The position numbers and the translations under genes are program-made. This document shows positions 6 to 46,682 of a DNA stretch of 64,000 bases, piece after piece. Each line of letters begins with the position of its first letter. Within the stretch, counting starts at the first letter, position 1. The notes beneath the pieces are model-generated. The model saw nothing but the letters and a program-made list of their open reading frames with translations. It ran no database searches and was not told the DNA's origin. Source of the DNA: Candidatus Latescibacterota bacterium. GTDB taxonomy: Bacteria > Krumholzibacteriota > Krumholzibacteriia > WVZY01 > JAKEHA01. The DNA lies in NCBI GenBank assembly GCA_963707635.1, contig OY970173.1, forward strand, positions 2,801,489 to 2,865,488. The letters are read 5' to 3'.

Positions 6-2897
6 ATGATCAACATCTCGACGCCCCTTGCGCGTACCCTCACGCACCTGCCGACGCTGGTGCTGCTCGTTGCCTTTCCTCAATTATCTGCCGGCCAGAC
101 CGCCCTCTCACCCACAAGAGACGTCACTCTCTTCGACCCGCAGTGTGAAAAAGCGAGCGGGTCCGGAGACTATTTGTTTGCGGGGAACACGAACGGACAG
201 GGCCGGCGTCGCGCGTTGTTGCACTTCGACATTGCCGGGAGTCTGCCGCCCGGCGCCGTGATCCAGAGTGTCACGCTGACCTTGCACATGTCGCAGACCA
301 ATACCGGGACGCGCACCTTCACTCTCCACCGACTGCAGCAGGACTGGGGGGAAGGAGCCTCCAATTCGGGGTCTCCCGGAGGGGGCGGCGGCCCGGCCCT
401 GAATAATGACGCGACCTGGTGCTACCGCTTCTACAACCAGGGTGATCCCGGCGCTTCTCCCGTGTGGTCGCCCTACGGCGGCGAGTTCGACACCACGGCG
501 AGCGCGTCGGCGGGCGTGGACGGAGTCGACTTCTACTCATGGACGTCGCCGCAGATGGTCGCCGACGTGCAGAGCTGGCTCGACAATCCTGCCTCCAACT
601 TCGGCTACATCCTGATCGGGCAGGAGGGCACCTTGCAGACCGCGAAGCGCTTCGACTCGCGCACGAACCCGACGATCAACCTGCGCCCCGTACTGCTGGT
701 TGAGTACGGCCCCCCGCCCGCGCCACCGGAGGTCGCGGTGCTGTCCCCCAACGGAGGCGGAACGGTCACGGCCAACACGGGGACCCTCGCCCAGTGGACG
801 GCAACCGACGCGAGCGGAATTGCCAGGATCGACCTGTACGTTTCGATCGACAACGGGCTCTCGTTCGACCGGGTTGCGATCGATCTTCCCCATACCGGAT
901 CGTACACATGGTTTCCCGCCAATCGCCCCACGACGCAGGCTCGGTTCCGTGTCGTCGCGACTGACAACACCAGTGTCAGCAATCAGGACGACAGCGATAT
1001 GCCGTTCACCATTCTCTCTCCGCCGGGCGGCATCGTGCCCACGACGCTGCGCGACTTCGATCAGCCCGGCACGCAGCCGTTCGACGCGGGCAAGCTCAAG
1101 GACCCCGAGAACTGTGCCACCTGCCACAGCGGCTACGGACAGACCGCGGTGGAGCCCTACTACAACTGGCAGGGCAGCATGATGGCCAATGCATCGCTCG
1201 ATCCCCTGTTCGAGGCAGCGCTGGCGATCGCGAACCAGGACGCACCGGATTCCGGCGATCTCTGCCTGCGATGTCACAACAGCCGCGGCTGGCTGGGCGG
1301 CCGCTCGATTCCGACCAGTGGGACGCAGATGGCCGACCAGGACAAGATTGGCGTTTCGTGCAACCTTTGTCATCGCATGGTCGACCCGATCGCCAACGCG
1401 GAGAATCCGGCCGAGGATGCCGCCGTCCTCGCCGCGCTCGATGAAGTTCCCGCCGAGTTCGGCACCGGCATGTACGTCGTCGACCCGAATGAGTCGGCTC
1501 GCCGCGGTCCTTTTGCCGATGCGGCCAGTGGTCACCCGATACTGGTTTCGCCGTTCCACCGCGAAGCGGCGCTGTGCGGAACGTGCCACAACGTCAGCAA
1601 CCCGGCGTTCACTCGCGATGCGGGCGGCAATTACGTGCCCAACGCGTTCGATACGCCCGCGCCCAGCTTCTCGCCGGACTCCATCATGGCGGTCGAGCGC
1701 ACGTACAGCGAGTGGTTGTTCAGCGCGTACAACACCCCGGGCGGCGTGTACGCGCCCGAGTTCGGAGGCAACAAGACCTACGTCTCGACCTGTCAGGATT
1801 GCCACATGCGGGATGTCACCGGCAAAGGCTGCAACAACGTCGCCGCGCCGGTCCGGTCGGACCTGCCGCTGCACGACCTGACGGGTGGAAGCACCTGGAT
1901 ACCCGGACTCCTGAGCACACTGCACCCGACGGTGGCCAACGACGCCGCGCTCCAGGACGGAATCATTCGGGCGCGCTACATGCTCCAGAACGCGACCGAG
2001 TTGTCACTCGTATCGGCCGACTCACTGCTCAGAGTGCGCGTGACAAACCAGACGGGGCACAAGCTGCCAACCGGCTATCCGGAAGGCCGCCGCGTCTGGC
2101 TCAACGTGAAGTTCTACGACCAGTCCATGGCCCTCGTCGGCGAGTCCGGGGCGTACGACGCAAGTACCGGGGTACTCACGCATGATGCCGAAGCCAAGAT
2201 CTACGAGATCGAGCCCGCCACGAATGGTATTCCCGGAGTTCCGGACGGCTCCCGGTTTCATTTCGTCCTGAACAACACCGTGCTCAAGGATAATCGCATC
2301 CCGCCGCGCGGTTTCACGAATGCTGCTTACGCTGCGTTTGGAGGCCCGCCGGTCGGACACGCCTATGCCGACAGCCAGTACTGGGACGACACGGAGTACG
2401 TCATCCCGACCGGCGCGGTGAAGGCCGAAGTGACGCTGTACTACCAGAGCACCTCGAAGGAGTACGTGGAGTTCCTGCGTGACCAGAACACCACGAACAC
2501 CAGGGGACAGGAGATGTTTGACGTATGGAACAACAACGGCAAGTGCCCTCCCGAAGTAATGAACACCCTGTCGGTGGACTTCAACTTGACCGCGGTTGAT
2601 GACAGCCCGGCGCCCGTGACGCGTCTGGGTCAGAATTACCCGAATCCGTTTAACCCGAGCACGTCGATCCAGTATTCCATCGGCGAACGAGGACACGTCA
2701 CGTTGCGGGTGTACGACGTGGCTGGACGGCTGGTGCGCACACTCGTGGACGCGGACCGCGCGCCCGAGGCCGGCTGGCTGAGCGTTACCTGGGACGGCAG
2801 GAACGATACCGGCGAGCCGGTGTCCAGCGGATTGTACTTCTACCGCCTGACGGTAAACGGCCACCGGGAAACCAGAAAGATGGTGCTTCTGCGATAG
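6..2897 (+). CDS. Secreted pentaheme c-type cytochrome with T9SS-type C-terminal sorting domain
   Basis: 963-aa ORF with N-terminal signal peptide (MINISTPLARTLTHLPTLVLLVAFPQLSAGQ). Five CxxCH motifs: CATCH, CLRCH, CNLCH, CGTCH, CQDCH. C-terminus LGQNYPNPFNPSTSIQY...VYDVAGRLVRTL...WDGRNDTGEPVSSGLYFYRL...RKMVLLR matches the Por-secretion-tail / FlgD-Ig-like sorting-domain pattern. Confidence 0.8.
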   Translation: MINISTPLARTLTHLPTLVLLVAFPQLSAGQTALSPTRDVTLFDPQCEKASGSGDYLFAGNTNGQGRRRALLHFDIAGSLPPGAVIQSVTLTLHMSQTNTGTRTFTLHRLQQDWGEGASNSGSPGGGGGPALNNDATWCYRFYNQGDPGASPVWSPYGGEFDTTASASAGVDGVDFYSWTSPQMVADVQSWLDNPASNFGYILIGQEGTLQTAKRFDSRTNPTINLRPVLLVEYGPPPAPPEVAVLSPNGGGTVTANTGTLAQWTATDASGIARIDLYVSIDNGLSFDRVAIDLPHTGSYTWFPANRPTTQARFRVVATDNTSVSNQDDSDMPFTILSPPGGIVPTTLRDFDQPGTQPFDAGKLKDPENCATCHSGYGQTAVEPYYNWQGSMMANASLDPLFEAALAIANQDAPDSGDLCLRCHNSRGWLGGRSIPTSGTQMADQDKIGVSCNLCHRMVDPIANAENPAEDAAVLAALDEVPAEFGTGMYVVDPNESARRGPFADAASGHPILVSPFHREAALCGTCHNVSNPAFTRDAGGNYVPNAFDTPAPSFSPDSIMAVERTYSEWLFSAYNTPGGVYAPEFGGNKTYVSTCQDCHMRDVTGKGCNNVAAPVRSDLPLHDLTGGSTWIPGLLSTLHPTVANDAALQDGIIRARYMLQNATELSLVSADSLLRVRVTNQTGHKLPTGYPEGRRVWLNVKFYDQSMALVGESGAYDASTGVLTHDAEAKIYEIEPATNGIPGVPDGSRFHFVLNNTVLKDNRIPPRGFTNAAYAAFGGPPVGHAYADSQYWDDTEYVIPTGAVKAEVTLYYQSTSKEYVEFLRDQNTTNTRGQEMFDVWNNNGKCPPEVMNTLSVDFNLTAVDDSPAPVTRLGQNYPNPFNPSTSIQYSIGERGHVTLRVYDVAGRLVRTLVDADRAPEAGWLSVTWDGRNDTGEPVSSGLYFYRLTVNGHRETRKMVLLR

Positions 2898-9580: not shown

Positions 9581-9763
9581 CAATTCTCCTTTCGTGAGGG
9601 GGTGATACGGCCTTTCGTCATGCTCCGCCAGGTTCGCGCCCGAATCATACCACGTACAGCCGTTGCCACGGCGGGCACGGGAGCGGGAGCGCAACGAATC
9701 ACGTGGGATGGCCGCAACGACGACTGGTTAGGCGTGGCGTCCGGCGTGTACTTACGCCGAGGA

Positions 9764-12295
9764 CTACCTCACGAGCGTCATCTTCCTCGCGTCGCTGAAT
9801 TCGCCAGCGATCAACCGATAGAAATACACGCCCGAGCCTACCGTCGTTCCGCGATCGTTGCGACCGTCCCATTCGAGCGAGTATGACCCGCCTGGCCTCG
9901 ATTCGTTCACCAGCGTGCGTACGGGCGTACCGCTCACGTCATAAACCACCAGCTCCACGTGCTCGCGTGACGCGATTCGATACCGGATGGTCGTCGACGG
10001 ATTGAATGGGTTGGGATAGTTCGGCATGAGCTCGTACCGGGGAGGCACCGGTTCCGGGTCCGCCACGCTGTTCGTTATCTCGAACACATCGTCGAGCATT
10101 GCGCTGGCACCGCCCGGGTTGTAGACCACTACATCATAGAATCCATTGATCGCGCCCGTTGTGTTGAACGTCGCGCGAATCCGGTCCTTCCCCAGCCACG
10201 TGACCGATGTCGCCGCGAACGTTGCGTTGCCGCGCACCAACTCGACAGTGCCCGTCCTGGCAAACCCCGCGCCGTCGATTGTCAGAAGAACAGTCGGCAC
10301 GGAGGTGTTGACGGGAGTCACCGTCGCCGGTGCCGGCGGTGGCCAACCGCCCCGCATCGCAGCATTGATGGGATCGCCGCTGCCACTGGTGATGCGAATG
10401 CTCACGTGACTCGGCCCGCCATGTCCATTGCTGGAGGGAGTGCTGGTACCGCTAAACACGGTGCGGTTAGCCTCTCCCGGGTACGGATCTCCTTCATCAC
10501 CGAGATTTTCGGCTCGCTCCAGGTTGAACAACCCGTCGGCCTGCTCGACCGCGACCCGGCGCGGGATGTTATTGCTCGCACCCCCCGTCTGGTTCCCGCT
10601 GTCAATGTGCCAGATCACAAGGCCGCCTCCACCCAGCACGTTGACATCCGTGCCGACCGGCTGACGGTTCTCCACCAGGAAGTACTCGATGGGGTTCGTC
10701 ATGTCCTCCGCCCATCCATCCTCACGCGTTTCGAAATTCGTGGAATGCGCGACCCCTCCGCCGACCACCGAAATATCATCCAACACGAACGCTCCGCACG
10801 TAGTGGCATTGACGCCGTCTTCGTCCGACCAATTCGCGTCCGACACAAACATGAACTTGATCGTGTAGGGCGTGCCGGCGATCAGGAAAGGCGTGATGTC
10901 CACCACTTCGGTGCCGGAGCCGGTTCCGTGGTAAGTCGCGAACGTGAAGGTCACGCCTCCCGTGATGACCTGGGCGAGCGTGTAGTCAAAGCTCGGTTCC
11001 GTTTCATGGGTATACTTGTACGAGAGCGTGACGGTACCGTTGGTGTAGCCGAATTCCTGTGCCAGCGAATGCTTCCACCGGTTTCCGTAGCCAGCGCCAG
11101 AAATCCAGTTGCGCCGTGCCGCTTCGGAGGAGGTCAGCCCGCATCGCATCGAATATTTTCCGCTAATCGCGCAGGTTGCGCTACGGCGCCAGCGTTCGTA
11201 CATGACGTCGAGACGATAGACGTCACGGTTGGTCTCCACGTTGAAGATCGAGAACGGCGTGGGGACCGACGGGACTACGGTGACGTCCACCCACCCGAGC
11301 TGTGACTTTGACCAGGCGCCCATGTGCGACGGGCTGCTGGCCGTGTACTCGCCTCCGTAACCCATCAGGCACCAGACCCCGACGCCTGCCGACCCGCCAT
11401 CCGTATCGTACAGATCGGGGAGGCCGAAGGCGTGTCCGTACTCGTGGCAAGACACACCGATATTCTCGGTGTTCACTCCGCCGCAGGTGAAGGCCGGCTG
11501 GATCACGTAGTCGTCTACGATGATGCTGCCACCGCCGGTGCGCGGATCGTTGGTCACGTGACCCCCGCCGAGACTCGAATGATGAGACCAGATGCCCCCG
11601 GGCTGGCCGGTGCACTCCCCGCCCGGTTTCGCGTGCACGATGGAAACAAAGTCCACGTAGCCGTCGTCGTCACCCGAGTTGGGAATCCCGTCGGGACCGT
11701 CGTTGTCATACTGGCCGAAGTCGATCGCGGCATCATTCGCAGCGACGGTCGTGATGACCAGCTCGTGGACATTCGCAGCCCCACACCGCCCGTTGCATGT
11801 GCCCGGACCGGCGTAGTACGCGTCCGATTCGGGCAGCGTCGTCCAGCCGTAGACGGTGCCGGTGACGTTGAGATCGCCGTATGAAATCTCGCTGTAATAC
11901 TCCGTCAGCGTGCGTGGTGAAAAGGGCCCGTCATATAGTTTCGTCTGCACGATCGACACCGGATACGGATCCGCGCCGGTGTTGCTGAACTTCACGCAGA
12001 ACGTCGGCACAGCAATCGTGCCTGTGACAGCAAAGCGAGGACGTTCCGCCGCCTGGAGCAGATCACGTTTGTAGAATCCGTGATCCCGGATGAAGCGCTC
12101 GCGGTTATCACGGATGATGCGCGTCTTTTCGATCCATGCGTGCTCGAACTCGAACTGGCCGTTGTTGTCCTTGAGCGACTGACTCACAGAGGGGGAAACC
12201 TCCGAGCCCGGTTCGGGCCGGGAGACTTGCGCGCGGGACGTTGTAATGGCACCGACACCAAGAACCAACGCCAGAATGAGCGGTGCTCGTTGCAT
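9764..12295 (-). CDS. Secreted M6-family (immune-inhibitor-A-like) zinc metalloprotease with T9SS-type C-terminal sorting domain
   Basis: Signal peptide at internal ATG (MQRAPLILALVLGVGAITTSRAQ); zinc motif HEYGHAFGLPDLYD; C-terminus ...MPNYPNPFNPSTTIRYRI...VYDVSGTPVRTL...WDGRNDRGTTVGSGVYFYRL...RKMTLVR. Confidence 0.8.
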   Translation of the reverse strand: MQRAPLILALVLGVGAITTSRAQVSRPEPGSEVSPSVSQSLKDNNGQFEFEHAWIEKTRIIRDNRERFIRDHGFYKRDLLQAAERPRFAVTGTIAVPTFCVKFSNTGADPYPVSIVQTKLYDGPFSPRTLTEYYSEISYGDLNVTGTVYGWTTLPESDAYYAGPGTCNGRCGAANVHELVITTVAANDAAIDFGQYDNDGPDGIPNSGDDDGYVDFVSIVHAKPGGECTGQPGGIWSHHSSLGGGHVTNDPRTGGGSIIVDDYVIQPAFTCGGVNTENIGVSCHEYGHAFGLPDLYDTDGGSAGVGVWCLMGYGGEYTASSPSHMGAWSKSQLGWVDVTVVPSVPTPFSIFNVETNRDVYRLDVMYERWRRSATCAISGKYSMRCGLTSSEAARRNWISGAGYGNRWKHSLAQEFGYTNGTVTLSYKYTHETEPSFDYTLAQVITGGVTFTFATYHGTGSGTEVVDITPFLIAGTPYTIKFMFVSDANWSDEDGVNATTCGAFVLDDISVVGGGVAHSTNFETREDGWAEDMTNPIEYFLVENRQPVGTDVNVLGGGGLVIWHIDSGNQTGGASNNIPRRVAVEQADGLFNLERAENLGDEGDPYPGEANRTVFSGTSTPSSNGHGGPSHVSIRITSGSGDPINAAMRGGWPPPAPATVTPVNTSVPTVLLTIDGAGFARTGTVELVRGNATFAATSVTWLGKDRIRATFNTTGAINGFYDVVVYNPGGASAMLDDVFEITNSVADPEPVPPRYELMPNYPNPFNPSTTIRYRIASREHVELVVYDVSGTPVRTLVNESRPGGSYSLEWDGRNDRGTTVGSGVYFYRLIAGEFSDARKMTLVR

Positions 12296-12905: not shown

Positions 12906-12931
12906 GTGGCTCACCAAAACACGAGCAGAAA

Positions 12932-13106
12932 TGGTGGAGGCGGCGGGAATCGAACTTTCAAGAAGATGAAACACTAACCTGATGATGGCGCTCGATTTCG
13001 GACGATAAGAATTGAAACATCACAGGTTATACGAACGCCGCTTCTCCACCCCAGTCCTCTGCAGTCTACCGGAATCGACCCATGTCATGGAGACATTTTG
13101 GAGACG
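12932..13106 (-). repeat. Class I ssrA-3'-end-derived repeat element, copy A (~175 bp)
   Basis: Minus-sense 3' end GTTCGATTCCCGCCGCCTCCACCA is identical to the last 24 nt of ssrA (T-loop to CCA). The adjoining ~150 bp is conserved with copies B and C (shared blocks cctgatgatggcg, gatttcgg, cagtcctct, ggagacattttggagacg) but unrelated to the ssrA body. The T-stem 5' strand and acceptor 5' strand are absent, so it is not an intact tRNA or tmRNA. Confidence 0.7.
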
Positions 13107-13891: not shown

Positions 13892-13899
13892 TCACTTGA

Positions 13900-23533: not shown

Positions 23534-23563
23534 TCTGGCTTGTGTTCTACACAAACAGAGTTT

Positions 23564-23737
23564 GGTGGAGGAGGCGGGAATCGAACTCTGTCGATGGAGA
23601 AACTCTAACACGTTGATGGCGTGTGGTTTCGGATGCTACGAGTTGAAACATCGCCAGTTAGGTGACCGCTGCTTCTCCACTCCAGTCCTCTGCAGTCTTC
23701 TGGAATCGACCCACGTCATGGAGACATTTTGGAGACG
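23564..23737 (-). repeat. Class I ssrA-3'-end-derived repeat element, copy B (~175 bp)
   Basis: Core tggtggaggaggcgggaatcgaac has one mismatch to the ssrA 3' end; arm conserved with copies A and C up to ggagacattttggagacg; preceded by the small inverted repeat tgtgttctacacaaacagag. Confidence 0.7.
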
Positions 23738-25245: not shown

Positions 25246-25544
25246 TGGATCATCGTGCGAGTGCGACAGGTCGCTGCATAACCTTCGCCATTTCACGACC
25301 AGAAGGGACCGCTGAAAGGTGCTGCAGAGGTGCGTTCAATGCAGAGTGTCCGCGGAGTAGTTAGCTAACGCGGCGATGCCACCCAAGCGACGACTAGATA
25401 CGAAGCGGCGGGAACTGCGGAAACGCGGATTTCGTCATGGAAACGGCGAGCGGCATAAGTTGTTCACGCTTCAGCGGTTGGTTACAATGGCACGCAAGTC
25501 GCGCTTCGCGCGAGCACTCATAACTCTATACGAATACACAAGAA

Positions 25545-25719
25545 ATGGTGGAGGCGGCGGGAATCGAACCCTGTTGCGAACGAAACATTAACCTGATGAT
25601 GGCGTGCGATTTCGGTTGTTGTGAGTTGAGAGATCGCAGGTTAGTTGACCGCCGCTTGTCCACTTCAGTCCTCTTGAGTCTACCGGACTCAACCCACGTC
25701 ATGGAGACATTTTGGAGAC
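25545..25719 (-). repeat. Class I ssrA-3'-end-derived repeat element, copy C (~175 bp)
   Basis: Core tggtggaggcggcgggaatcgaac identical to the ssrA 3' end; arm conserved with copies A and B; lies in the divergent region between the PD40 gene and the M36-like protease gene. Confidence 0.7.
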
Positions 25720-25914
25720 GGGTTTGACCTTCGCCCTTGTGCGGAGTTACTTTTATGGTGAATTGCCAGTCGGTTCTCGCCCGTCTCCGGGCAAAGATGT
25801 GGGCTTGAAAGTGTCCACCGTTCGGATTACGCTGCCTGCATTCCGGCCCGGTGATTTCATTCCGGAGACCTCCTTTCTTGCGGTTAACTCCAGGCGGCCA
25901 TCGGCCCAAGGAGC

Positions 25915-29044: not shown

Positions 29045-29416
29045 TGGTGGAGGCGGCGGGAATCGAACCCGCGTCCGAAGAAGCAGCCGCAACGGTTACT
29101 ACGTGTGTAGTCCGTGGTGATTTCTCATCTCCGTACCCACCGCGGACGAAAGTGTAACGGAGACCAGCCCGGTAGTTTCTCGCGCCTCAGCCCCAGACAT
29201 AGCCTCGGCGCCAGCCCCCAGAGTATGACGCCCACTCACCGGCCCTGGAGACCCAGCCGGTGGGGACGGGAGCCTAAGCTAGCTTAGCTAGTTAGGCAGC
29301 CAGTGCGACGTTGTTGTCAGCACTTGAATTGGTGCCACCTGGTTTTACGAGGCTTGTGACCTGGCTCGACACGCAACCGGTACGCCCATCTTCCCCGTCG
29401 AGACCTGTTCGCCCCC
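29045..29416 (-). ncRNA. ssrA: tmRNA (transfer-messenger RNA, SsrA), standard one-piece form
   Basis: Minus-sense 5' end GGGGGCGAACAGGUCUCGACGGGG resembles the tmRNA 5' consensus. 3' end GCGGGUUCGAUUCCCGCCGCCUCCACCA is a perfect T-arm, 7-bp acceptor stem pairing with the 5' end (G3:U70, discriminator A) and encoded CCA. Internal tag reading frame ...GCU GAC AAC AAC GUC GCA CUG GCU GCC UAA encodes ...ADNNVALAA-stop. Confidence 0.9.
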
Positions 29417-30469: not shown

Positions 30470-32859
30470 CTACTTCAGCAATAGCATCTTACGTGCGAGC
30501 GTCGCTCCGCTCGCGTTGAGACGGTAAAAGTAGATCCCGCTTCCCACGCGCCGGCCTTCATTATCGACACCGTCCCATTCCGCGACATAGGTCCCGGCAC
30601 GGCGATGCGTGTCGAGTAGCGAACGGACGAGGGCGCCTCGCGCGTCGTAAATACGCAGCGAGACCGGGCCGTCGCGTTCCACGCCGTAAGAAATCCTGGT
30701 GGTGGGATTGAACGGATTGGGGACGTTCTGATCCAGGTGGGTGCGAGCCGGCGTTGTGCCGGCGCCCGTCACCGCGCCCGGCGTGAGCAGCCGCAAAGGC
30801 GCTCTCGTTGTCGTGCAAATCGAACGCGCTGACCTTGTAGTAGTAGCCGCTCGAGGGTGTCCACGCGGGATCGAGGAACGACTCCGACGCCGGCGTTGCG
30901 ATGCGATTACCCGCATCCGGGACAAAGCCCGCCGTGCTTCCCCGATACACGCCGTAATTCGCGAGATCGTGCTCGTCGTTTGGCTGCCACGACATCGAGA
31001 GTCCGGCAGGAGAATGTGATTGTGCACCCGCGAGATTCTGAGGCGCGGCCGGGGCAAGGTTATCGACCGAGTATCCGCTGTCTGGCGCGCTGTCGTAATA
31101 CACCGACGGCGTCGTGGTCTGCGCCATTACGAAGTACACGTTGTACGGAGTGACCGCAACCGTCTGGTCAGCCTGCGTAGGTGCGAGCACGATGTAGTCG
31201 CTCGACTGCTGCCGCGCGGGAGCGCTCGCGACCGATTCCCACAACGCTGCTGTGGACACCGCATCCAGCGAGGGCTCGCGCCAGATCCGGTGACCTTCCC
31301 ATTCGATAGCGCTCGACTTCCCTACCACGCCCTCGCTTTGGATCTGCGCAACGAGAGCTGCATTATCGATGCGCCGAAACACGTAGTACGTGAGCACACC
31401 CGGCGAAGCACTCGCGATGTCCTCTCCCGATCCCTGGAAGTAGACACGCACCCAGCCACCCTGATCTCCGGGCACATCGACGATGTTGTGAATCTCCGGC
31501 TTCTGGCGGCTGAATCGGGCGATGAAGATATCCTGGCCCGATGCTGTGAGATTGCTTCCCCCAAAATTGGTCGTACCGTTGACGTAGCCGGTCATGACGA
31601 CATTGTTCGCCGGGTCGGTGACGACCCGGTTGGCATGCTGATCAGACGCGTCACCGTACGTCGCGTTGAACAGAAGATTCCCGTCGTTGTCGAATCGAAC
31701 GAGAAAAATGTCGGTGCCACCGGCACTGGTGAGGGCTCCGGTTCCAAAATCCACGCTGCCCGCGTAGTAACCCGACCACGCCACCGCACCGCCGGCATCC
31801 ACCGCGGGCCCATTGGCGTTTTGCGCGCCGGCATCCCCGAAGCGTCTTGCTCCAGACATGATTGCCCGCGGCATCCAGCCTGGCGATGCAGATGTCGTTG
31901 CCACCTGCCGACGTCAGCCCGCCGCCGCCGAAATCCACCGTCCCCTGGAATGTTCCCGTGACGAAGACGTTACCCGCCGGATCGAATCCGATTCCATTTC
32001 CGATCTGGCTGCTGGCATCCCCGAAGCGCTTGCTCCACACGTGCACGCCCGCGCTCGTGAACCGCGCAACAAAGATGTCGTTGCTTCCTCCGCTGGTAAT
32101 GGTGCCACCACCGAAGTCGGCGCTGCCCGCCATGTTCCCCGCAATTCCAACGTCTCCGTCCGCACTAACTGCCACCCCGATCCCATTCTGGCCCCCAGTC
32201 GCTCCGAAGCGTTTGCTCCACAGATGATTTCCGGCGGGATCGAACTTCACCAGGAATATGTCGGCGCCGCCCCCGCTCGTGAGCGGCCCCCCACCGAAGT
32301 CCACGGTTCCATTCATCAATCCGGTCATGTAGATGTTGCCGCTGCCGTCGGTGGCGATGCCGTTTGGAATCTGGTCGGTCGCGTCGCCAAATTGCTTGCT
32401 CCACTGATGCGCGCCGGCGGAGTTGAATTTACCGACAAAAATGTCGGTCAAGCCGGCGGAACTGAGGGTCGAACCTCCCAGGTTCACGGATCCTGACACT
32501 TGCCCGGCCAGAACGACGTTGCCGGAAGGGTCACAGGCCAGTGCGGTGCCGTATTCGGACATTGTCGTGCTTTGGAAAAAGCCCACGCTGTAGAGATGGG
32601 TCCCGCCAGCGTTGAATTTGGCGAGATACGGTGCATCGTCCGTGCTTCCGACCGTGAAGTCCCCCCCGCCAAAATTGACCGTCCCCCGAAACATGCCCGT
32701 GATCCATACGTTGCCGCTCGGATCCACGGCAATTCCGCGGCCGTCCTGTGTGTTGACATCGCCAAAGATCTTGCTCCAGCTATGCTGGAGAGCCGGGGCA
32801 GCCTCGAGACGGACGGAATTGAGGAGAAGAAGCGAGAGGACGACGGGACGGATTCGCAT
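30470..32859 (-). pseudogene. Secreted beta-propeller (SBBP-like) repeat protein with fibronectin-III-like region and T9SS-type C-terminal domain; reading frame broken twice
   Basis: Three track ORFs (31651..32895, 30561..31904, 30470..31057) are consecutive parts of one protein: signal peptide MRIRPVVLSLLLLNSVRLEAAPA, ~8 repeats of the D-x-x-G-N-x-x-x-T-G...FGGG type, a YSVDNLAPAAP segment, and C-terminus ...NVPNPFNPTTRISY...IYDARGALVRSL...WDGVDNEGRRVGSGIYFYRL...RKMLLLK. Frame switches near 31845 and near 30790. Confidence 0.65.
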
Positions 32860-34255: not shown

Positions 34256-34354
34256 GCACCTCCCAAAAAACTCGTGACGGATCCTGCCCCGGCACGTCTA
34301 ACCGGGAAACGGGCTCCATGCCCGAAAGCCAGCCACCGAACCGGAGGGCCTCCC

Positions 34355-35359
34355 ATGTTTCGACGTCTCGTGCTCCTGACCGTGCTGACCCTGATTGCCG
34401 GCTTCCGCCCGGCACAGGCCGACATCACGACGGGCCTCATCGCCCGCTACCCGTTTGACGGCAACGCCAACGATATCAGTGGAAACAACAATCACGGCTC
34501 GTTGGTGGGTGCGGTGGCGTCCACCACCGATCGTTTCGGGTTGCCCGACCGGGCCTATGCGTTCAACGGCCTGAATACCTATGTGCTGGTCCCTGCCTCG
34601 GCCAGCCTGAACTCGCCGACCACGGCTTGCACGCAGGCGGGATGGACGCTGCAATCCGGAGTGAGTAGTGTGGGATCGGGCTTCAATCCGCTCCTCATGA
34701 AGAGCAATAGCGGTGAGAATGCGTTCATGTACCGGATGATCACGAACCCCACCTACGTGGGCGCCGCATTCAACAACTGGAACACCGCCCAGAGCGCCGG
34801 GCAGGCGACACCGCTCAACGAGTGGCACCACTTCGCGACCGTGTTCAACGGCGCTACCGTCAGGTACTACTACGACGGCGCGTACATCGGGTCGCAGCCG
34901 ATGGTGATGACGATCACCCCGGACAACCGCCCGCTCACCATTGGCGCCGATGTGCCCGGTATTCTCGAGATCTTCAACGGCAAGATCGACGATGTGTCCA
35001 TCTACAGTCGTGCACTCACCGACGAGGACATCGTCGAGCTCTACAATCAGGCGACGCCGACTGCCGTGTCCCAATCGACGCCGCCGTTTTCGCTGGGCTA
35101 CAGCGTTCCCAATCCCAGCGGCGGCGAAAGCAGCGTGGAGTTCACCCTCGACTCGGAGCAGTTCGTCCAGCTCGACGTGTTCGATGTGGCCGGGCGCCGC
35201 GTGCGCGTCATGGAATCCGGAGTTCGTTCGGCCGGAGTCCATCGCGCGACGTGGGATGGGCGCCGGGACAACGGGAGCCATACGCCGTCGGGCGTCTATT
35301 TCTTTCGTCTCCACAGTGGAAACCACGTGCTGACGAGCCGAATCGTTCGGGTGCGGTAG
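34355..35359 (+). CDS. Secreted LamG / concanavalin-A-like lectin domain protein with T9SS-type C-terminal sorting domain
   Basis: Signal peptide (MFRRLVLLTVLTLIAGFRPAQA); LamG-like block (DGNANDISGNNNHGSLVG...WHHFATVFNG...GKIDDVSIYSRALTDEDI); C-terminus ...VPNPSGGESSVEF...VFDVAGRRVRVM...WDGRRDNGSHTPSGVYFFRL...SRIVRVR. Confidence 0.7.
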   Translation: MFRRLVLLTVLTLIAGFRPAQADITTGLIARYPFDGNANDISGNNNHGSLVGAVASTTDRFGLPDRAYAFNGLNTYVLVPASASLNSPTTACTQAGWTLQSGVSSVGSGFNPLLMKSNSGENAFMYRMITNPTYVGAAFNNWNTAQSAGQATPLNEWHHFATVFNGATVRYYYDGAYIGSQPMVMTITPDNRPLTIGADVPGILEIFNGKIDDVSIYSRALTDEDIVELYNQATPTAVSQSTPPFSLGYSVPNPSGGESSVEFTLDSEQFVQLDVFDVAGRRVRVMESGVRSAGVHRATWDGRRDNGSHTPSGVYFFRLHSGNHVLTSRIVRVR

Positions 35360-35376
35360 TTACGGCGGGGCAAAAA

Positions 35377-35406
35377 GAGAGGGCACCGGCTCGGCGGTGC
35401 CCTCTC
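35377..35406. terminator. Hairpin between the convergent genes 34355..35359 and 35429..36520
   Basis: gagagggcaccg-gctcgg-cggtgccctctc inverted repeat flanked by A/T-rich sequence. Confidence 0.45.
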
Positions 35407-35428
35407 GTGACAACGATGTCGGCAATGC

Positions 35429-36520
35429 CTATTTGCCGCCACCCTTCTTCCCCTGGTCGTGGGGAACGACCACCTCGACCCTGGTATCGGTAGCGTTGCC
35501 AGCGCTGTCCTCACAACGAACCAGAACCGTGTAGATGCGGGACGACCCGCCGCCAGAGCGCTCGGCGCGGAGCTCGAGGCCCGTGTCACCCGTGATCAGC
35601 CAGTCGGGTTCGGTGTTGCCGTCGCCCGTGCCATTGACCGGCTCGTTGCTGGTGACTCCGAGAATCTTGCACGTCGGCGTGGAATCGCACTCATCCTCGG
35701 CGTCCACCGCTATCCGGATGTTCCTCCACTTGTGGTTGGGCGGCCACAGGATTCCCGGTGTGGCAGTCACGCCGGTGATGACCGGCGGCTCCGTGTCCGT
35801 CCCGACGGTCACGGTGAACGCGCACGTCGAGGTATTCCCCAGCGAATCGACGGCCGTGCAGGTGACCGCCGTCTCTCCCACCGGGAACGTGCTGCCGGAG
35901 GGCGGGTCGCAGGTCACGACCGGCAGCGGATCGCAGTCATCGATCGCGGTCACGCTGAATTCGACGACCGCACCATCGGCGCCGGCACAGGCGATGGTGG
36001 TATCGGCCGCGCAAGTGATCTCGGGCGCGGTCACGTCGGGCTGAAACACCGGCGGGTCGGGCAGGAATGCCTGACTGCGCTGTGTTTCCAGCGCCGCCTT
36101 CCACGAAACCAGTAGCGACGAGAGCCCGGTCAGGTAGCCCTGCCGCGGTGTGGTGGCGGGATCGAAATCGGCCACCGTATCGAGCACCGCGGATCCAAGC
36201 GCGCCGTTGATGGCGCCTTCCCACTGTTGCAGAGCCGGCACGAGTTCGTCGAGGTATCCGGCGACCGTGGACTCGTCCGTCCATGCCGGCGTGTCATCCA
36301 GACCGGCTCCAAGCCAGGTCTCGATCGAATCCTCCCAGACCGGGAGGACGGGCGAAAGCTGAAAGAGGTAGATGTACTCTCCGCACCCGGCCTGCGCCCG
36401 GAATGCCCTGCTCTTGAATTGCTCTGGACCCGCGGGTGAACCTTCGTGGTTTCCGCATCCATAAATGACGAACGTGGCGACGAGCGCCGCCACGCCGAGG
36501 CGAATGTTGAGTTTGATCAT
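35429..36520 (-). CDS. Lipoprotein with HYR (hyalin-repeat) domain
   Basis: Signal peptide plus lipobox (MIKLNIRLGVAALVATFVIYGC); Cys-rich HYR-like block (PEITCAADTTIACAG...GETAVTCTAVDSLGNTSTCAFTVTV). Confidence 0.6.
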   Translation of the reverse strand: MIKLNIRLGVAALVATFVIYGCGNHEGSPAGPEQFKSRAFRAQAGCGEYIYLFQLSPVLPVWEDSIETWLGAGLDDTPAWTDESTVAGYLDELVPALQQWEGAINGALGSAVLDTVADFDPATTPRQGYLTGLSSLLVSWKAALETQRSQAFLPDPPVFQPDVTAPEITCAADTTIACAGADGAVVEFSVTAIDDCDPLPVVTCDPPSGSTFPVGETAVTCTAVDSLGNTSTCAFTVTVGTDTEPPVITGVTATPGILWPPNHKWRNIRIAVDAEDECDSTPTCKILGVTSNEPVNGTGDGNTEPDWLITGDTGLELRAERSGGGSSRIYTVLVRCEDSAGNATDTRVEVVVPHDQGKKGGGK

Positions 36521-36665
36521 GTGATGCCCCCGCGAGGATGCATGAAAGAGGCGGCCGTATGCCTCAAAATTAGAGCTCCATTATACCACTACAACCCCGG
36601 TCGCCGTCTACCTCCGTGCGCGGTGTGATAGAATCCCGGAGCGTGATCGATACCCACGCTCCAGC

Positions 36666-37286: not shown

Positions 37287-37362
37287 CGGAGGATGCCGGC
37301 AGAAGCACCCATTGTATTCCTCTTTGAGCCTTCCGGAATGATCGCGCTATAATCCGCCCCGC

Positions 37363-38064: not shown

Positions 38065-38066
38065 CC

Positions 38067-39524: not shown

Positions 39525-39530
39525 CCGGGC

Positions 39531-40799: not shown

Positions 40800-41511
40800 C
40801 CGCGGCCGGCGCGACCTTGCGATCGTCGTGAGCTGCGAGCACGGCGGACATCGCGTCCCCGCGCACTACCGTTCGCTTTTCAAGGGCCACGAGCGCGTTC
40901 TAGCTTCGCACCGGGGGTGGGACCCGGGAGCGCTGGTGCTGGCGCGCGCGATCGCGCGCGTGTGCGGCGCCCGGCTGGTCGCCACCACGACCTCGCGCTT
41001 GTTGGTCGAATGCAACCGCTCGATCGGGCACCCGCAGCTCTTCTCCGAGTTCACGCGCCGACTCCCGCCCAACGAGCGCACACGCCTCCTGGAGCGCTAC
41101 TACCGCCCCCATCGCCGCGCGGTCGAAGAAGCGATCACCCGCGCGCTCGAGTCGCACAAACGCGTGTTGCACGTCGGCGTGCATACGTTCACGCCGGTCT
41201 TGAACGGCGTGCGGCGACGCGCCGACGTCGGCCTGCTCTACGACCCGAAGCGCCCGTTCGAGCACGCGGTGGCCGACTCCCTCGTCGTCCACCTCGGCCT
41301 GCGCGCGCCCGCGCTGGTTGTCCGCAGGAACTATCCGTATCGCGGCTGGTCCGACGGCCTGACCACGGCGCTGCGTTCGTGGCTCCCCCGCGGCCGCTAC
41401 GCCGGCATCGAGCTGGAAGTGAACCAGGCGCTCGCCGCCGGAAACGCCCACGCCTGGTCGGCGACGCGGCGCCGGATCGCGGCGTCGTTTCGGGACGCCT
41501 TTCTGGACTGA
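40786..41511 (+). CDS. N-formylglutamate amidohydrolase family protein
   Basis: LAIVVSCEHGGHRVP (metal-binding EHGG-type motif) and later HVGVHTFTP, typical of the formylglutamate-amidohydrolase fold; overlaps the upstream gene by 14 nt. Confidence 0.6.
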   Translation: MPRRDRGRRDLAIVVSCEHGGHRVPAHYRSLFKGHERVLASHRGWDPGALVLARAIARVCGARLVATTTSRLLVECNRSIGHPQLFSEFTRRLPPNERTRLLERYYRPHRRAVEEAITRALESHKRVLHVGVHTFTPVLNGVRRRADVGLLYDPKRPFEHAVADSLVVHLGLRAPALVVRRNYPYRGWSDGLTTALRSWLPRGRYAGIELEVNQALAAGNAHAWSATRRRIAASFRDAFLD

Positions 41512-42966: not shown

Positions 42967-43959
42967 TCAGCGATTGACGAGCCCCAGCATCTTCGGATCG
43001 TAGCGACCGCCCACGACGGCGCCCTTCGGCGAGGCCTCTTCGATGCGCGCGATATCCGCGTCGCCGAGCTCGACATCGACCGCCGCTATGTTCTCTTCCA
43101 ACCGCGCGATGCTGCTCGTACCCGGAATCGGGATGATGTCGTCGCGCCGGTGCAGCAGCCAGGCCAGGGCGAGTTGGGCCGGCGTGCAGCCTTTCTTCGC
43201 CGCCACTTCCCTTACCCTTTCGGCAATCGCCAGGTTCTTCGCAAAATTTTCGCCCTGGAACCGCGGGTTGTTGCGACGCCAGTCGTCGGGACTCAAGTCC
43301 TCGACCCCTCGAAAGCGTCCACCCAGGAATCCGCGGCCGAGGGGGCTGTACGCGATCAGCGCAATGCCTAGCTCCTCCAGGGTCGATAGCATCTCGAGTT
43401 CCGGGTCCCGGGTGAACAGAGAGTATTCATTCTGCACCGACGCCAGCGGATGAACCGCGTGCGCGCGGCGAGCCGTGGCTACCGACGGCTCCGACAATCC
43501 GATGTGCCTCACCTTTCCCTCGCGCACGAGCTCTGCCATCGCACCGACGGTCTCCTCGATCGGCACGGACGTGTCGACGCGGTGCAACTGATAGAGATCG
43601 ATGTATTCGACGCCCAGGCGTTTGAGCGAAGACTCGCACGCCTGGCGCACGTACTTCGCGCTGCCGTCGACGGGGCGCCCGGCGGCTGCCCCTCCGCGCG
43701 CGAAACCGAACTTCGTGGCGAGGATCACACGCTCACGCCGGCCCCTGATGGCCTTGCCCACCTTGAGCTCCGAGTCGCCGTAGATGTCGGCGGTGTCGAG
43801 GAACGTGAGACCCAGATCGAGGGCACGGTGAATGAGCGCCATGGCCTCATCGTCGTTCTTCACGCTGCTGGTATACGTATCCGCGATGCCAATGCTCATG
43901 CAGCCGAGACCCAGAGCCGACACCTCGGGGCCGCTGCGGCCGAGTTTTCGATGCTTCAT
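42967..43959 (-). CDS. Aldo/keto reductase
   Basis: LGCMSIG...DTADIYG...ILATKFG...DLYQLH pattern typical of the aldo/keto-reductase family; 330 aa. Confidence 0.8.
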
Positions 43960-44046
43960 ATTGCTGCCTCCTGGTCACACGTATGATATCGGCACAGAAT
44001 CGAAAATGCAAACGGCCACGTCCGCGCCGACGTGGGCCGTTTTAGT

Positions 44047-44106
44047 TGGTGCGCCGCGAAAGACTCGAACCTTCAACCACCTGATCAAGAGTCAGATGCT
44101 CTACCA
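44047..44106 (-). repeat. tRNA-Lys 3' fragment (~60 nt) with its own upstream hairpin
   Basis: tggtgcgccgcgaaagactcgaaccttcaaccacctgatcaagagtcagatgctctacca matches the 3' 60 nt of tRNA-Lys (47455..47529) with two mismatches, then diverges; preceded by hairpin cggccacgtc...gacgtgggccg plus tttt. Confidence 0.7.
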
Positions 44107-44270: not shown

Positions 44271-46682
44271 ATGCGCTCGTTTCTCCTCTCCCTGTCGATC
44301 ACTGTCAGCCTGTTTCCCGTCGCCGCGAGCGCCCAGTGGGGGCTCGACGGGGCTCCGATCTGCACCGCGTGGAACAGCCAGTACTCCCCGGACATTGTCT
44401 CCGACGGCGCGGGCGGAGCGATCATTGCCTGGTACGACTACCGTTTGAGCAGCCTGGATATCTACGTGCAGCGGGTAAACGCTCTAGGGATTCCGCAGTG
44501 GACAGCCAACGGTGTCGCACTGTGTTCGGCCGCCAACGAACAGTACTACCCGGTCGTCGTCTCCGACGGCGCGGGCGGAGCGATCGTCGCGTGGTACGAC
44601 GGCCGCGGAAGTAGCTACGATATCTACGCGCGGCGAATCAACTCGTCGGGGGTTCCCCAGTGGGCAGCCGACGGCGTCGCCCTCACAACCGCGGCGAACG
44701 GCCAGTTCAGCCCCACCATAGTTTCCGATGGTGCCGGAGGAGCGATCGTCGCATGGTACGATTTCAGCAGCGGATCCGATTACGACATCTACGCGCGGCG
44801 GATCAACGCGTCGGGAACTCCCCAGTGGACCGCCAACGGTGTCGCCCTCTGCACCGCTCTTAACGACCAGGCCTATCCCAACCTCGTCTCCGACGGCGCG
44901 GGCGGAGCGATCGTCGTGTGGAGTGACTATCGATCCGGCGCAGGCGACATCTACGCGCGACGGATCAATGCATCGGGGACGCCGCAATGGACCGCCAACG
45001 GCGTCGCCCTTTGCAGCACGGTCGGAGATCAGGCGCACCCCGCCATCGCCGTGGATGGCGCGGGCGGAGCTATCGTGGCATGGGACGACCGTCGCGGCGG
45101 ACCGAACTCGGATCTCTATATCCAGCGCGTGAACGCGTCGGGAACGCCGCAGTGGGCCCCCAACGGCGTCGCCATGTGCACCGCCATGAACGATCAGGAG
45201 TACCCCGCCATCACCCTCGACGGAGCGGGCGGTGCGATCGTGGCCTGGGAGGACTTCCGCAGCGGATTCGACCACGACATTTTCGCCCAGCGGATGGTCG
45301 CCTCGGGATCTCCCCAGTGGGCCGATAACGGCGTTGCCGTTGCCATCGCACCGAACTCGACATATCTGCCTACCATGGTTTCCGATGGCACCGGTGGTGC
45401 AATTCTAGCGTGGCAGGACGACCGCAACGGGTTCGACTTCTCCGACGTCTACATGCAACGGCTCGATGCGCTCGGGAACGCCCAGTGGACCCCCAACGGA
45501 GCCGTGATCTCGAGCGCGGTCGGTCACCAATACGACCTGGCGTTGATCACCGACGGTGCCGGAGGAGCGACGGTCGCCTGGACGGATGACCGCAGCAGTT
45601 TCTACAGCACCCACATCTACGCCCAGCGAGTCGAAGATCACTATGGGTACTGGGGGCACCCGGAGCCCGTCGTCAAGTCGGTCGCCGACATTCCGAAAGA
45701 CAACGGCGGAAGGGTCGCACTCAACTGGACGCCGAGTGGGCGCGACCTCTCGAACCCGCGCACGGTCGATCATTACACGATCTGGCGCGCGGTCGACGTC
45801 ATCCCGGCCCCGGTCTCGAACGCGACCGCGGTCTTGACCGACATTGCGAATGTGGGCGAGACCGCGGACGGACCGGTGTACGCGGTACTTCCTTCTTTGT
45901 CCGGCTACTACTGGGAGCTGGTGGGAACGCAGTCCGCGAACGCCTGGTCCGGGTACTCGTTCTCCACCTCGACGCGTGCCGATTCGGTCGCCGGGAATTC
46001 GGGAACCGAGACCTTCATGGTGGCGGCGCACCTCCAGTACGACTCCTATGTCGCGTTCCCGTCGAACGTGATGAGCGGCCACTCCGTCGATAACCTGGCT
46101 CCCGCCGCCCCGCTGATGCTCACAGCGCTGCGTGCCGGCGCCGACGTGCACTTGCAATGGAATCGCGTGCGCGTCCCTGACCTGCGCGACTACTCGCTGT
46201 ATCGCGCCACGTCCACCGGTGTGACCCCCGTGCCGATCAACTTCCTCGCGTCGGCCGAGGAGACGTTGCTGGTCGACGCAGGCGCGCCGTCCTCCGCGCT
46301 TTACTACATCGTGACCGCTATCGACGTGCACCACAACCAGGGTCCACCGTCGAATGAGGCCAGTGTCGGTGCGCTGACTGGCATCGGAAACACACCACCG
46401 ATCGCCGCCCTGACCGTGCTCGAGAACGTGCCAAATCCGTTCAATTCCCGAACGACATTGCGCGTCGGCCTGCCGCGGGCGAGCGAACTGGAGGTCGAGG
46501 TGTACGACGTCTCCGGCAGGCGGATCCGGGACGAACGGACCGCGGCGCTCGGGGCGGGTTGGCGAGAGGTTCCCTTCGAGGCGCGGAGCACAAACGGGAG
46601 TGTGCTCCCGAGCGGAGTCTATTTCTATCGCGTGACGGCAGCGGGACAGTCCGTCAGGGGCAAGATGGTGATCGCCAGGTAG
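44271..46682 (+). CDS. Secreted tandem-repeat protein (about nine ~55-aa repeats) with FN3-like region and T9SS-type C-terminal sorting domain
   Basis: ATG after GGAGG; signal peptide (MRSFLLSLSITVSLFPVAASAQ); repeats of the form ...PQWTANGVALC...VSDGAGGAIVAW.D.R....DIYA.R.NASG.; a HSVDNLAPAAP segment; C-terminus LENVPNPFNSRTTLRV...VYDVSGRRIR...SGVYFYRV...GKMVIAR. Confidence 0.7.
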   Translation: MRSFLLSLSITVSLFPVAASAQWGLDGAPICTAWNSQYSPDIVSDGAGGAIIAWYDYRLSSLDIYVQRVNALGIPQWTANGVALCSAANEQYYPVVVSDGAGGAIVAWYDGRGSSYDIYARRINSSGVPQWAADGVALTTAANGQFSPTIVSDGAGGAIVAWYDFSSGSDYDIYARRINASGTPQWTANGVALCTALNDQAYPNLVSDGAGGAIVVWSDYRSGAGDIYARRINASGTPQWTANGVALCSTVGDQAHPAIAVDGAGGAIVAWDDRRGGPNSDLYIQRVNASGTPQWAPNGVAMCTAMNDQEYPAITLDGAGGAIVAWEDFRSGFDHDIFAQRMVASGSPQWADNGVAVAIAPNSTYLPTMVSDGTGGAILAWQDDRNGFDFSDVYMQRLDALGNAQWTPNGAVISSAVGHQYDLALITDGAGGATVAWTDDRSSFYSTHIYAQRVEDHYGYWGHPEPVVKSVADIPKDNGGRVALNWTPSGRDLSNPRTVDHYTIWRAVDVIPAPVSNATAVLTDIANVGETADGPVYAVLPSLSGYYWELVGTQSANAWSGYSFSTSTRADSVAGNSGTETFMVAAHLQYDSYVAFPSNVMSGHSVDNLAPAAPLMLTALRAGADVHLQWNRVRVPDLRDYSLYRATSTGVTPVPINFLASAEETLLVDAGAPSSALYYIVTAIDVHHNQGPPSNEASVGALTGIGNTPPIAALTVLENVPNPFNSRTTLRVGLPRASELEVEVYDVSGRRIRDERTAALGAGWREVPFEARSTNGSVLPSGVYFYRVTAAGQSVRGKMVIAR

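Follow-up and report, generated by a model that had tools for sequence, protein, structure and literature searches.

Probable accessory genes for type IX-like tail proteins and small ssrA and tRNA-Lys islets in a Krumholzibacteria-like genome

Why should six genes that share one C-terminal tail lie close together on a single stretch of a bacterial contig? The stretch analysed here, called the window throughout, is 64,000 nucleotides long. A sequence-only reading had recognised the six genes, placed several of them directly beside repeat copies of ssrA or tRNA-Lys, considered their density unusual and proposed that they belong to a variable, horizontally exchanged gene pool. The analysis reported here indicates that they are probably accessory genes for putative substrates of a type IX-like export pathway, which cluster because several of their lineage's insertion hotspots fall within the window. 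The ssrA gene of the window is 92% identical to that of the MAG contig CAVTNQ010000001.1, with the same tag peptide, and the homologues of TyrA and MurI carry the source names Candidatus Krumholzibacteria or Latescibacteria. By these matches the window belongs to a Krumholzibacteria-like member of the FCB superphylum.

Six proteins with a common C-terminal tail

A homologous tail of about 90 residues, with PNPFNP and GxYFYRL motifs and a basic-hydrophobic motif at its terminus, closes exactly six of the ORFs in the window, and both the coordinates and the tails given by the sequence-only reading are borne out (Table 1). A local HMM, trained on these same six tails, recovered six full copies (E 1e-38 to 1e-42) and one partial relic of a seventh from the six-frame translation of the window, where it found nothing else with E below about 0.1. 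In all six proteins the match reaches the C-terminal residue or the one before it. Each protein also begins with a signal peptide, recognised by eye as a hydrophobic segment closing in an A-x-A/Q-like site; it reads MINISTPLARTLTHLPTLVLLVAFPQLSAGQ in the cytochrome and MQRAPLILALVLGVGAITTSRAQ in the M6 protease. The start codons at 12295, 32859, 34355 and 44271 are the methionines that begin obvious signal peptides.

Table 1. Positions of the tail genes, the integration targets and their displaced fragments in the window
Feature	Position	Strand	Remarks
Secreted pentaheme c-type cytochrome	6..2897	+	DNRLRE/CBM96-like N-terminal domain; tail about 2625-2894; TIGR04183 36.5 bits
Relic of seventh tail	9665..9760	+	profile positions 43-74 only, E 3e-6; converges on the M6 stop codon
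M6 (immune inhibitor A-type) metalloprotease	9764..12295	-	tail 9767-10036; TIGR04183 30.6 bits
Outermost displaced ssrA 3' copy and arm	12927..13106	-	bounds 10.6-kb segment
Second displaced ssrA 3' copy and arm	23558..23737	-	bounds one-gene islet
Displaced ssrA 3' end (last ~25 nt) and conserved ~150-nt arm	25541..25720	-	attR-like end of M36 islet
M36 (fungalysin-type) metalloprotease with FTP propeptide and tail	25915..28836	+	Peptidase_M36, FTP; TIGR04183 31.1 bits
ssrA (tmRNA, tag ADNNVALAA), integration target	29045..29416	-	ARAGORN; Rfam RF00023 180.6 bits
SBBP beta-propeller-repeat protein with tail	30470..32859	-	between ssrA and tyrA; TIGR04183 28.2 bits
2.4-kb insertion between tyrA and trmB	34256..36665	.	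LamG-tail gene and HYR gene
LamG/concanavalin-like lectin-domain protein with tail	34355..35359	+	Laminin_G_3 E 6e-21; TIGR04183 34.5 bits
HYR-domain lipoprotein	35429-36520	-	in the tyrA-trmB insertion
Displaced tRNA-Lys 3' fragment, about 60 nt	44047..44106	-	D arm to CCA; adjoins AKR gene
Tandem-repeat protein with tail	44271..46682	+	~54-55 aa x 8, beta-propeller-like; TIGR04183 34.6 bits
Displaced tRNA-Lys 3' fragment	46767..46807	-	anticodon loop to CCA, then terminator-like hairpin
tRNA-Lys(CTT), integration target	47455..47529	-	

In front of the tail, the N-terminal modules recognised by Pfam and NCBIfam are mutually unrelated and comprise proteases, a cytochrome, a lectin and propellers. 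The cytochrome, which matches DNRLRE_dom, has five CXXCH motifs, as its description as a pentaheme protein had implied; pentaheme cytochromes are not known as a class of T9SS cargo in Bacteroidota. The M6 protease matches Peptidase_M6 (E 8e-28) and TIGR03296, and its tail is 97% identical to that of the JGI fragment P0001. Three-frame translation of the SBBP gene confirmed that it is frameshifted, with two frameshifts, near 31850 and near 30800, spreading it over three frames. The tandem-repeat gene has a repeat period of 162-165 nt and matches the repeat model TIGR04275.

Islets behind ssrA and tRNA-Lys and further variable spots

The repeat copies described earlier are real. There are three displaced copies of the 3' part of ssrA and two of tRNA-Lys, all of which bound their segments in direct orientation, and their 20-nt 3' ends (at 25546, 23563 and 12932 for ssrA, 46767 and 44047 for tRNA-Lys) show 0-1 mismatches with the respective gene. 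The M36 gene is the sole gene from ssrA to the displaced copy that ends its islet, and in the closest relative, L006, this segment is absent and a different gene occupies the place. The islet closed by the second copy likewise consists of one gene (ORF 23761-25296), which encodes a choice-of-anchor J protein without tail. The segment closed by the outermost copy carries genes for a deacetylase, an FtsH paralogue, a Ser/Thr kinase, an ECF sigma factor, a rhomboid protein and DUF1269/DUF308 proteins. Each ssrA islet closes in the same arm of about 150 nt.

As an att arm of fixed length, about 175 nt, this element begins with an invariant 23-mer common to Acidobacteriota, Krumholzibacteriia and Latescibacteria, and its conservation across phyla is a side lead judged worth following. 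Its interpretation as a tmRNA fragment or a structured RNA was rejected: Rfam matches the T-loop only, and RNAalifold gave -5 kcal/mol with essentially no covariation over 13 copies from three phyla. The arm is therefore treated as a DNA site. The 23-mer was not found in IMG/VR viral contigs, and no integrase was found among the ORFs that adjoin the arm in eight further genomes. Pfam and NCBIfam searches of about 45 ORFs of the window, including all of at least 250 aa, revealed no integrase or recombinase family either.

At the other target, the tandem-repeat gene is the sole gene between the two displaced tRNA-Lys copies. The corresponding empty site is preserved in the relative L020, in which AKR, tRNA-Lys and SSB are contiguous and align to positions 42971-44106 and 47412-48233 of the window. 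The longer displaced fragment is the original end of tRNA-Lys, contiguous with the AKR gene as in L020. Scars of tRNA fragments were absent at tRNA-His, tRNA-Arg and tRNA-Pro of the window and also at the hotspots beside tRNA-Pro and tRNA-Arg in relatives.

The tyrA-trmB junction and the ssrA-tyrA interval are additional variable spots. In the relatives L019, L020 and L022, tyrA and trmB are separated by 3-9 nt and the LamG and HYR genes are absent; the flanks of the junction align to these relatives at 74-78% nucleotide identity, while the insert does not align. Nothing convincing was found by way of boundary repeats at this insertion, and there are no att-like scars around the SBBP and LamG genes. 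In relatives, the position of the SBBP gene is taken by unrelated genes. The ssrA array of a relative (L003/L020) holds three other tail genes, one of which encodes a homologue of the LamG protein with 69% amino acid identity.

The two positional claims of the sequence-only reading are consequently upheld in part. Strictly bounded by repeat copies are the M36 and tandem-repeat genes, two of the six. The SBBP and LamG genes are found 5' of ssrA. The M6 gene falls beyond the outermost repeat that could be detected, a displaced ssrA copy some 0.6 kb away from its 5' end, and the cytochrome gene has no demonstrated link to any hotspot or repeat copy in the window. Membership in a variable gene pool holds for several of the genes, as the islets, the empty site, the tyrA-trmB insertion and the confinement of tail genes to non-syntenic segments testify.

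These arrangements show that site-specific integrations have succeeded one another 3' of ssrA and tRNA-Lys. They have produced islets in tandem, with one gene or a few in each and a displaced 3' piece of the target gene as boundary. Since the islets lack integrases, they would be decayed remnants or would have been moved by an integrase acting in trans. Islets may later have been exchanged between relatives if their conserved flanks recombined homologously. The occurrence of accessory secretome genes in tDNA-linked islets is a real feature, and one of an ordinary kind. There is a slim chance that the ssrA and tRNA-Lys arrays are instead a working cassette platform without an integrase of its own, where a conserved integrase encoded elsewhere would capture and shuffle modules with fixed-length arms of about 175 nt at tDNA sites. 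Such modules would contain one or two genes, mostly for surface or secreted proteins and many with type IX-style tails, and would constitute an integron-like route to secretome diversification in these lineages. Unlike integron cassettes, the segments of the window come without an integrase, are bounded by 3' fragments of tDNA rather than attC sites, and have an arm without conserved folded structure.

Identity of the tail and density of the tail genes

The tails could be Ig-like domains of the FlgD type that serve another role, such as surface anchoring, adhesion or a different kind of sorting, and the lineage might have no T9SS. In profile searches, five of the six tails pass the gathering score of FlgD_ig (Pfam PF13860), while with Por_Secre_tail (PF18962) they reach 19-26 bits, under the gathering score of 27; nevertheless, with 28.2-36.5 bits all six exceed the curated cutoff of 23 bits that NCBIfam sets for its T9SS type A sorting domain model, TIGR04183, and the equivalog models of FlgD itself give them 16-31 bits against cutoffs of 230-383. 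The best sequence match of the tail in the PDB is FlgD (E 4e-9, versus 1.2e-5 for the PorU CTD). The AF2 model of the tail (pLDDT 92.3) is an Ig-like beta-sandwich for which the top Foldseek match is the PorU CTD (6za2, TM 0.71), with the PorZ CTD (5m11, TM 0.69) and the RemA/RemZ CTDs in SprA complexes (8gl8_D and 8gl6_D) among the other matches; FlgD matches it equally well. The invariable position of the domain at the extreme C-terminus of signal-peptide proteins with unrelated modules is the architecture of T9SS cargo and not that of FlgD. NCBIfam also has entries for the combination of a type A tail with an M6 or an M36 protease (NF052323, NF038113). No gene for T9SS machinery (SprA/Sov, PorV, PorU, GldK/L/M/N) was detected when the window was scanned with Pfam and NCBIfam, and none appears in the gene tables of the loci retrieved from relatives; and no paper was found that reports a T9SS in Krumholzibacteriota or Latescibacteria, but the system has been described for the FCB superphylum (PMC11205867). 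Taken together, the curated model, the architecture and the predicted fold support the tails as putative T9SS type-A-like sorting domains, and a FlgD-type domain with some other role appears unlikely. We infer that a type IX-like pathway most likely carries the six proteins to the cell surface or into the medium.

An unusual density of such genes, as the sequence-only reading had it, could not be established, as 18-21 kb of the corresponding regions in relatives contain 2-3 of them. The density of the window appears typical of the hotspots of this lineage and unusual only in a relative sense, and the high local density would therefore be a property of the hotspots and not of this genome region in particular. 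It might be argued from the same numbers that the clustering is unremarkable, with tail genes abundant throughout the genome and their adjacency to tRNA or tmRNA fragments coincidental. The tail family is indeed enormous, with at least 8000 candidates in a database search, and at a base rate of 6-10% the probability of finding six or more among 54 genes is 0.10-0.46; at the control rate of about 3%, it drops to 0.005. The distribution of the genes within the window argues against coincidence: four of the nine variable genes have tails, compared with none of the 22 syntenic backbone genes (Fisher p=0.004), and in a rough, hand-classified pool of the window and relatives the counts are 13/44 and 0/79 (p=4e-7). 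Variable genes of the window also have lower GC3 than backbone genes (0.77 versus 0.86, p=4e-4). Five murI-seeded control loci from relatives, all syntenic with this window, contain no tail gene among about 105 backbone genes, and the only 2-3 tail genes in them are directly 3' of tRNA-Pro or tRNA-Arg. The window has 0.94 tails for every 10 kb. In tail-seeded IMG/VR loci, a weak comparator made up of contigs from other organisms and contexts, the additional tails amount to 0.19 per 10 kb. With two genes exactly bounded by att-like repeats in addition, mere abundance has a low probability. Local duplication of one tail gene followed by domain shuffling is very improbable, even though the tail is common to six neighbouring genes and the tails share short DNA similarity (repeat family D8, 73-80% over 30 nt). 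The N-terminal modules are unrelated, and homologues of the LamG and tandem-repeat proteins are located elsewhere in a relative. Pairwise protein identity among the tails is 34-58%; because the best match of each within the window is 41-57% identical and five of the six match some database tail better, the tails are not recent local duplicates.

Relation to known systems and meaning for the lineage

The six proteins resemble the type A CTD cargo of the Bacteroidota T9SS (gingipains, the CTDs of PorU and PorZ, Flavobacterium johnsoniae RemA and the cellulases of C. hutchinsonii) in combining a Sec signal, a variable module and a C-terminal beta-sandwich. They differ in that the host is Krumholzibacteria-like and that FlgD_ig gives the tails a better score than Por_Secre_tail does. 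Flagellar FlgD has an Ig-like domain that is alike in sequence and in fold, whereas the proteins of the window have neither the N-terminal domain of FlgD nor a flagellar context.

Islands in tRNA and tmRNA genes are defined in Islander/TIGER by a regenerated target and a displaced 3' fragment that marks the far end (PMC4383910). The islets of the window conform to this pattern, with displaced 3' fragments, tandem arrangement 3' of ssrA and tRNA-Lys, and an empty site in a relative. They depart from it in being very small (0.65-3.5 kb, often one gene) and without integrase, and in that the ssrA islets all end in a common arm. Integrase-less, att-flanked elements that accumulate in tandem beside integrative elements are familiar as CIME-like elements from the literature on Streptococcus ICESt. 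The segments described here are likewise att-flanked, without recombination genes and in tandem at a tDNA-type site, but no integrase-bearing element resides at the sites of the window.

The hotspot reading extends two established principles, tDNA islands and the accessory secretome, and introduces no new one; it is genome plasticity of a familiar kind, here in a little-studied lineage. In this uncultured FCB lineage, for which MAGs are the only source, proteins with type IX-style tails are part of the flexible genome. A few tDNA-linked hotspots are where their genes turn over, between relatives that share 74-78% nucleotide identity in the conserved flanks. This knowledge can be used in the annotation of 'FlgD-like' tails in non-Bacteroidota genomes, in reading strain-level variation in extracellular functions and in flagging loci for niche-specific exoenzymes.

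The shared C-terminal tail

The six open reading frames singled out in the sequence-only reading do share an alignable C-terminal tail of ~90 residues, with the motifs ...N-x-PNPFNP..., V-Y/F-D-V-x-G-R, W-D-G and S-G-V-Y-F-Y-R-L and the terminus R-K-M-x-L-x-R/K. The start codons proposed there are the methionines that open clear signal peptides, the cytochrome has the expected five CXXCH motifs and the SBBP gene is indeed broken by two frameshifts. At the first of these, near 31850, there is an apparent single extra base after ...TGGAGCAAG, outside any homopolymer run, so that a real pseudogene seems likelier than a sequencing error. When a profile of the six tails was searched against the window in six reading frames, the same six were recovered (E 1e-38 to 1e-42) with no further full copy; after these and a relic of a seventh tail, the next match had an E of ~0.2. 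The relic, flanked by the DUF1801 gene on one side and the M6 stop codon on the other, covers profile positions 43-74 only and suggests past turnover of tail genes beside the M6 gene.

All six proteins score above the curated cutoff of the T9SS type A sorting domain model, NCBIfam TIGR04183 (28-36 bits against 23), and the tails are also similar to the C-terminal parts of the PorU, PorZ, T9SS-dependent M6-like and T9SS-dependent M36 models. The Pfam preference is FlgD_ig, whose gathering score is passed by five of the six tails, while all six fall just under that of PF18962. Among solved structures, FlgD (E 4e-9) and the C-terminal domain of PorU (E 1.2e-5) come nearest by sequence. AlphaFold, given a 41-sequence alignment, predicts a beta-sandwich of six to seven strands (pLDDT 92), for which Foldseek ranks the PorU C-terminal domain at the top (TM 0.71), followed by FlgD and the PorZ C-terminal domain and, lower, by cargo domains bound in SprA translocon complexes. 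The tail occupies the extreme C-terminus of proteins that have a signal peptide and unrelated N-terminal modules (M6, M36, multiheme cytochrome, LamG, SBBP and a further propeller-like repeat); type IX cargo is built in this way and FlgD is not. Because no T9SS machinery gene lies within the window, we can only infer that these proteins are exported by a T9SS or type IX-like system.

An invariant 23-mer adjoining the ssrA copies matches 13 GTDB genomes, including contig CAVTNQ010000001.1, labelled Candidatus Latescibacteria, which has the same tmRNA tag (ADNNVALAA), an ssrA of 92% nucleotide identity and two neighbouring genes at 87%. Homologues of TyrA and MurI with 75-85% identity come from sources labelled Candidatus Krumholzibacteria or Latescibacteria. 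The ssrA, TyrA and MurI matches thus show the organism to be Krumholzibacteria-like and to belong to the FCB superphylum, the group for which T9SS has been described (PMC11205867).

Tail genes in conserved and variable neighbourhoods

The window (63% GC, with genes for tRNA-Lys, tRNA-His, tRNA-Arg and tRNA-Pro) was compared with TyrA-seeded loci of three relatives, L019, L020 and L022. All have in common a backbone of tyrA-trmB-C39 peptidase-RLAN/RimK-GCS2-FGase at 74-78% nucleotide identity; this cluster, with gene order kept in all three relatives, may be a peptide-modification or amino-acid-ligation pathway. A gap of 3-9 nt separates tyrA from trmB in the three relatives; the window has 2.4 kb at this junction, with the LamG-tail gene and a gene for an HYR lipoprotein. 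The M36 position is occupied in the closest relative by an unrelated gene of 532 aa. AKR, tRNA-Lys and SSB are contiguous in L020, where the window AKR gene and the 44047 fragment align, implying that the tandem-repeat-tail gene and a 150-aa ORF are insertions into tRNA-Lys. Two further intervals, ssrA-tyrA (where the window has the SBBP pseudogene) and FGase-AKR, are different in each genome compared; other tail genes are often present in them, with two in L019 and two in L022. The ssrA array of L020, with copies at 4980, 2554 and 625, contains three tail genes, among them a LamG homologue (69% amino acid identity) and a relative of the tandem-repeat protein. In L019, the position of the SBBP pseudogene is taken by a radical-SAM enzyme, an ABC exporter and an NHL-repeat gene, which looks like a RiPP-type cluster.

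Tail genes make up 6 of the ~54 window genes (11%; 0.94 per 10 kb), a density that had been regarded as unusual. In the part of the window with comparators they account for 4 of 9 non-syntenic genes and for none of the 22 genes of the syntenic backbone (Fisher p=0.004). In five murI-seeded control loci of relatives (~105 genes) the backbone has no tail gene, and the only tail genes, two complete and one running off the locus end, sit directly 3' of tRNA-Pro or tRNA-Arg. The site 3' of tRNA-Pro, empty in the window, is filled in relatives by tail genes whose products are a copper-binding protein and one with a CHRD domain; a further tail gene follows tRNA-Arg, and no tRNA-fragment scars were found at these sites. 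When genes were pooled after a rough hand classification of the gene tables, 13 of 44 variable and 0 of 79 backbone genes had a tail (p=4e-7). On the other hand, tail genes reach a similar density in the corresponding regions of relatives (2-3 per 18-21 kb). The control loci are all syntenic with the window, and a genome-wide base rate of 6-10%, if that applies, makes six tail genes in 54 unsurprising. In our reading the enrichment over the conserved backbone is real, but it belongs to the hotspots found in this lineage and is not peculiar to this genome; the earlier description of the density as unusual is supported only in part.

Displaced ssrA and tRNA-Lys ends

An island that integrates into a tRNA or tmRNA gene regenerates its target and leaves the displaced 3' fragment at its far boundary (PMC4383910). 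The ssrA and tRNA-Lys repeats in the window are the classic signature of this process. No recombinase was found among the ~45 ORFs scanned, which included all of at least 250 aa. The M6-tail gene starts ~0.6 kb past the outermost ssrA copy.

Features of the window and of related loci
Feature	Position	Strand	Content
Cytochrome tail gene	6-2897		
Tail relic	~9665-9760	+	
M6-tail gene	9764-12295		
M36-tail gene	25915-28836		
SBBP pseudogene	30470-32859	-	
LamG-tail gene	34355-35359		
Tandem-repeat-tail gene	44271-46682		
ssrA	29045-29416	-	
ssrA 3'-end copies	25546, 23563, 12932	same as ssrA	3'-terminal 20-25 nt
Shorter ssrA 3'-end copies	28976, 23492		
Displaced ssrA ends with arm	12927-13106, 23558-23737, 25541-25720	-	also in loci L001-L013
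tRNA-Lys 3' copies	46767, 44047		~41 nt, ~60 nt
Segment	ssrA to 25546		M36-tail gene only
Segment	25546 to 23563		one ORF, tail-less choice-of-anchor J domain protein
Choice-of-anchor J gene	23761-25296	-	
Segment	23563 to 12932		10.6 kb, regulatory and membrane genes
Largest segment, interior	13107-23557		
Segment	tRNA-Lys to 46767		150-aa lipoprotein gene only
Segment	46767 to 44047		tandem-repeat-tail gene only
Backbone cluster	33113-34255, 36666-41511		tyrA, trmB, C39-like peptidase, RLAN/RimK ATP-grasp, GCS2 (glutamate-cysteine ligase family 2), N-formylglutamate amidohydrolase
Mini-units, window	28840-29045, 23489-23562		
Mini-units, relatives	L006 3569-3678; L022 875-1043; L004 2399-2505		
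RiPP-like cluster (closest relative, ssrA to tyrA)	L019 3189-7576		
Tail genes by tRNA-Pro/tRNA-Arg, relatives	L102 14684-16132; L106 16388-17047, 20030-end		

The choice-of-anchor J protein, the sole product of the middle ssrA islet, has a signal peptide; since parts of it match two adjacent genes of one relative (loci L003/L020), one of them tail-bearing, it may be a mosaic or truncated form. The largest segment encodes a second FtsH-type protease, a rhomboid protease, DUF1269/DUF308 membrane proteins and a Ser/Thr kinase adjoining an ECF sigma factor (PF07638 type). The closest relative shares this segment, at least towards ssrA (87% nucleotide identity), and the segment therefore predates the small islets.

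Each displaced ssrA 3' end is preceded by a conserved arm, 174-177 nt from its first base to CCA, which starts with the invariant 23-mer CGTCTCCAAAATGTCTCCATGAC containing two GTCTCC half-sites at a spacing of 11 nt. The arm occurs across Acidobacteriota, Krumholzibacteriia and Latescibacteria, with a 3' end that differs by host. It is absent from IMG/VR, and the 8-kb loci examined have no integrase next to it. The arm resembles a region to which an integrase would bind, retained by ssrA-targeting elements of a widespread family; it is not tmRNA-like and has no conserved RNA fold, and readings as a tmRNA-like sequence or a structured RNA were rejected.

Tandem mini-units of ~72 nt, in 2-3 copies, sit just 3' of the window ssrA and of one displaced copy. 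They consist of a terminator-like hairpin (CTCTGTTTGTGTA...ACACAAAC..GAG), then GGTCGGCTCTGAGC and then a partial ssrA core (CGCCGCCTCCACCA), and resemble either unoccupied att sites or duplicated terminators.

Origin and meaning of the tail-gene islets

Local duplication as the origin of the six tails is ruled out, since the best in-window match of each tail is at 41-57% identity and five of the six are closer to a database tail, in one case at 97%, than to those of the window. tDNA-targeted insertion scars bound two of the six tail genes, tail-gene positions are insertion-polymorphic among relatives, and the codon composition of variable genes is unlike that of the backbone (GC3 0.77 versus 0.86, p=4e-4). 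The islets would have been delivered by site-specific recombination, with an integrase that was lost or acts in trans, and later exchange may have been possible by homologous recombination across the conserved flanks. The earlier assignment of the tail genes to a variable, exchanged gene pool is supported for at least four of the six. Almost all other genes of the variable segments carry signal or lipoprotein signals, and therefore the hotspots are secretome hotspots more broadly. The significance of the tail-gene islets is modest: they add a new case, from an uncultured phylum, to two principles already known, tDNA-linked islands and the accessory secretome.
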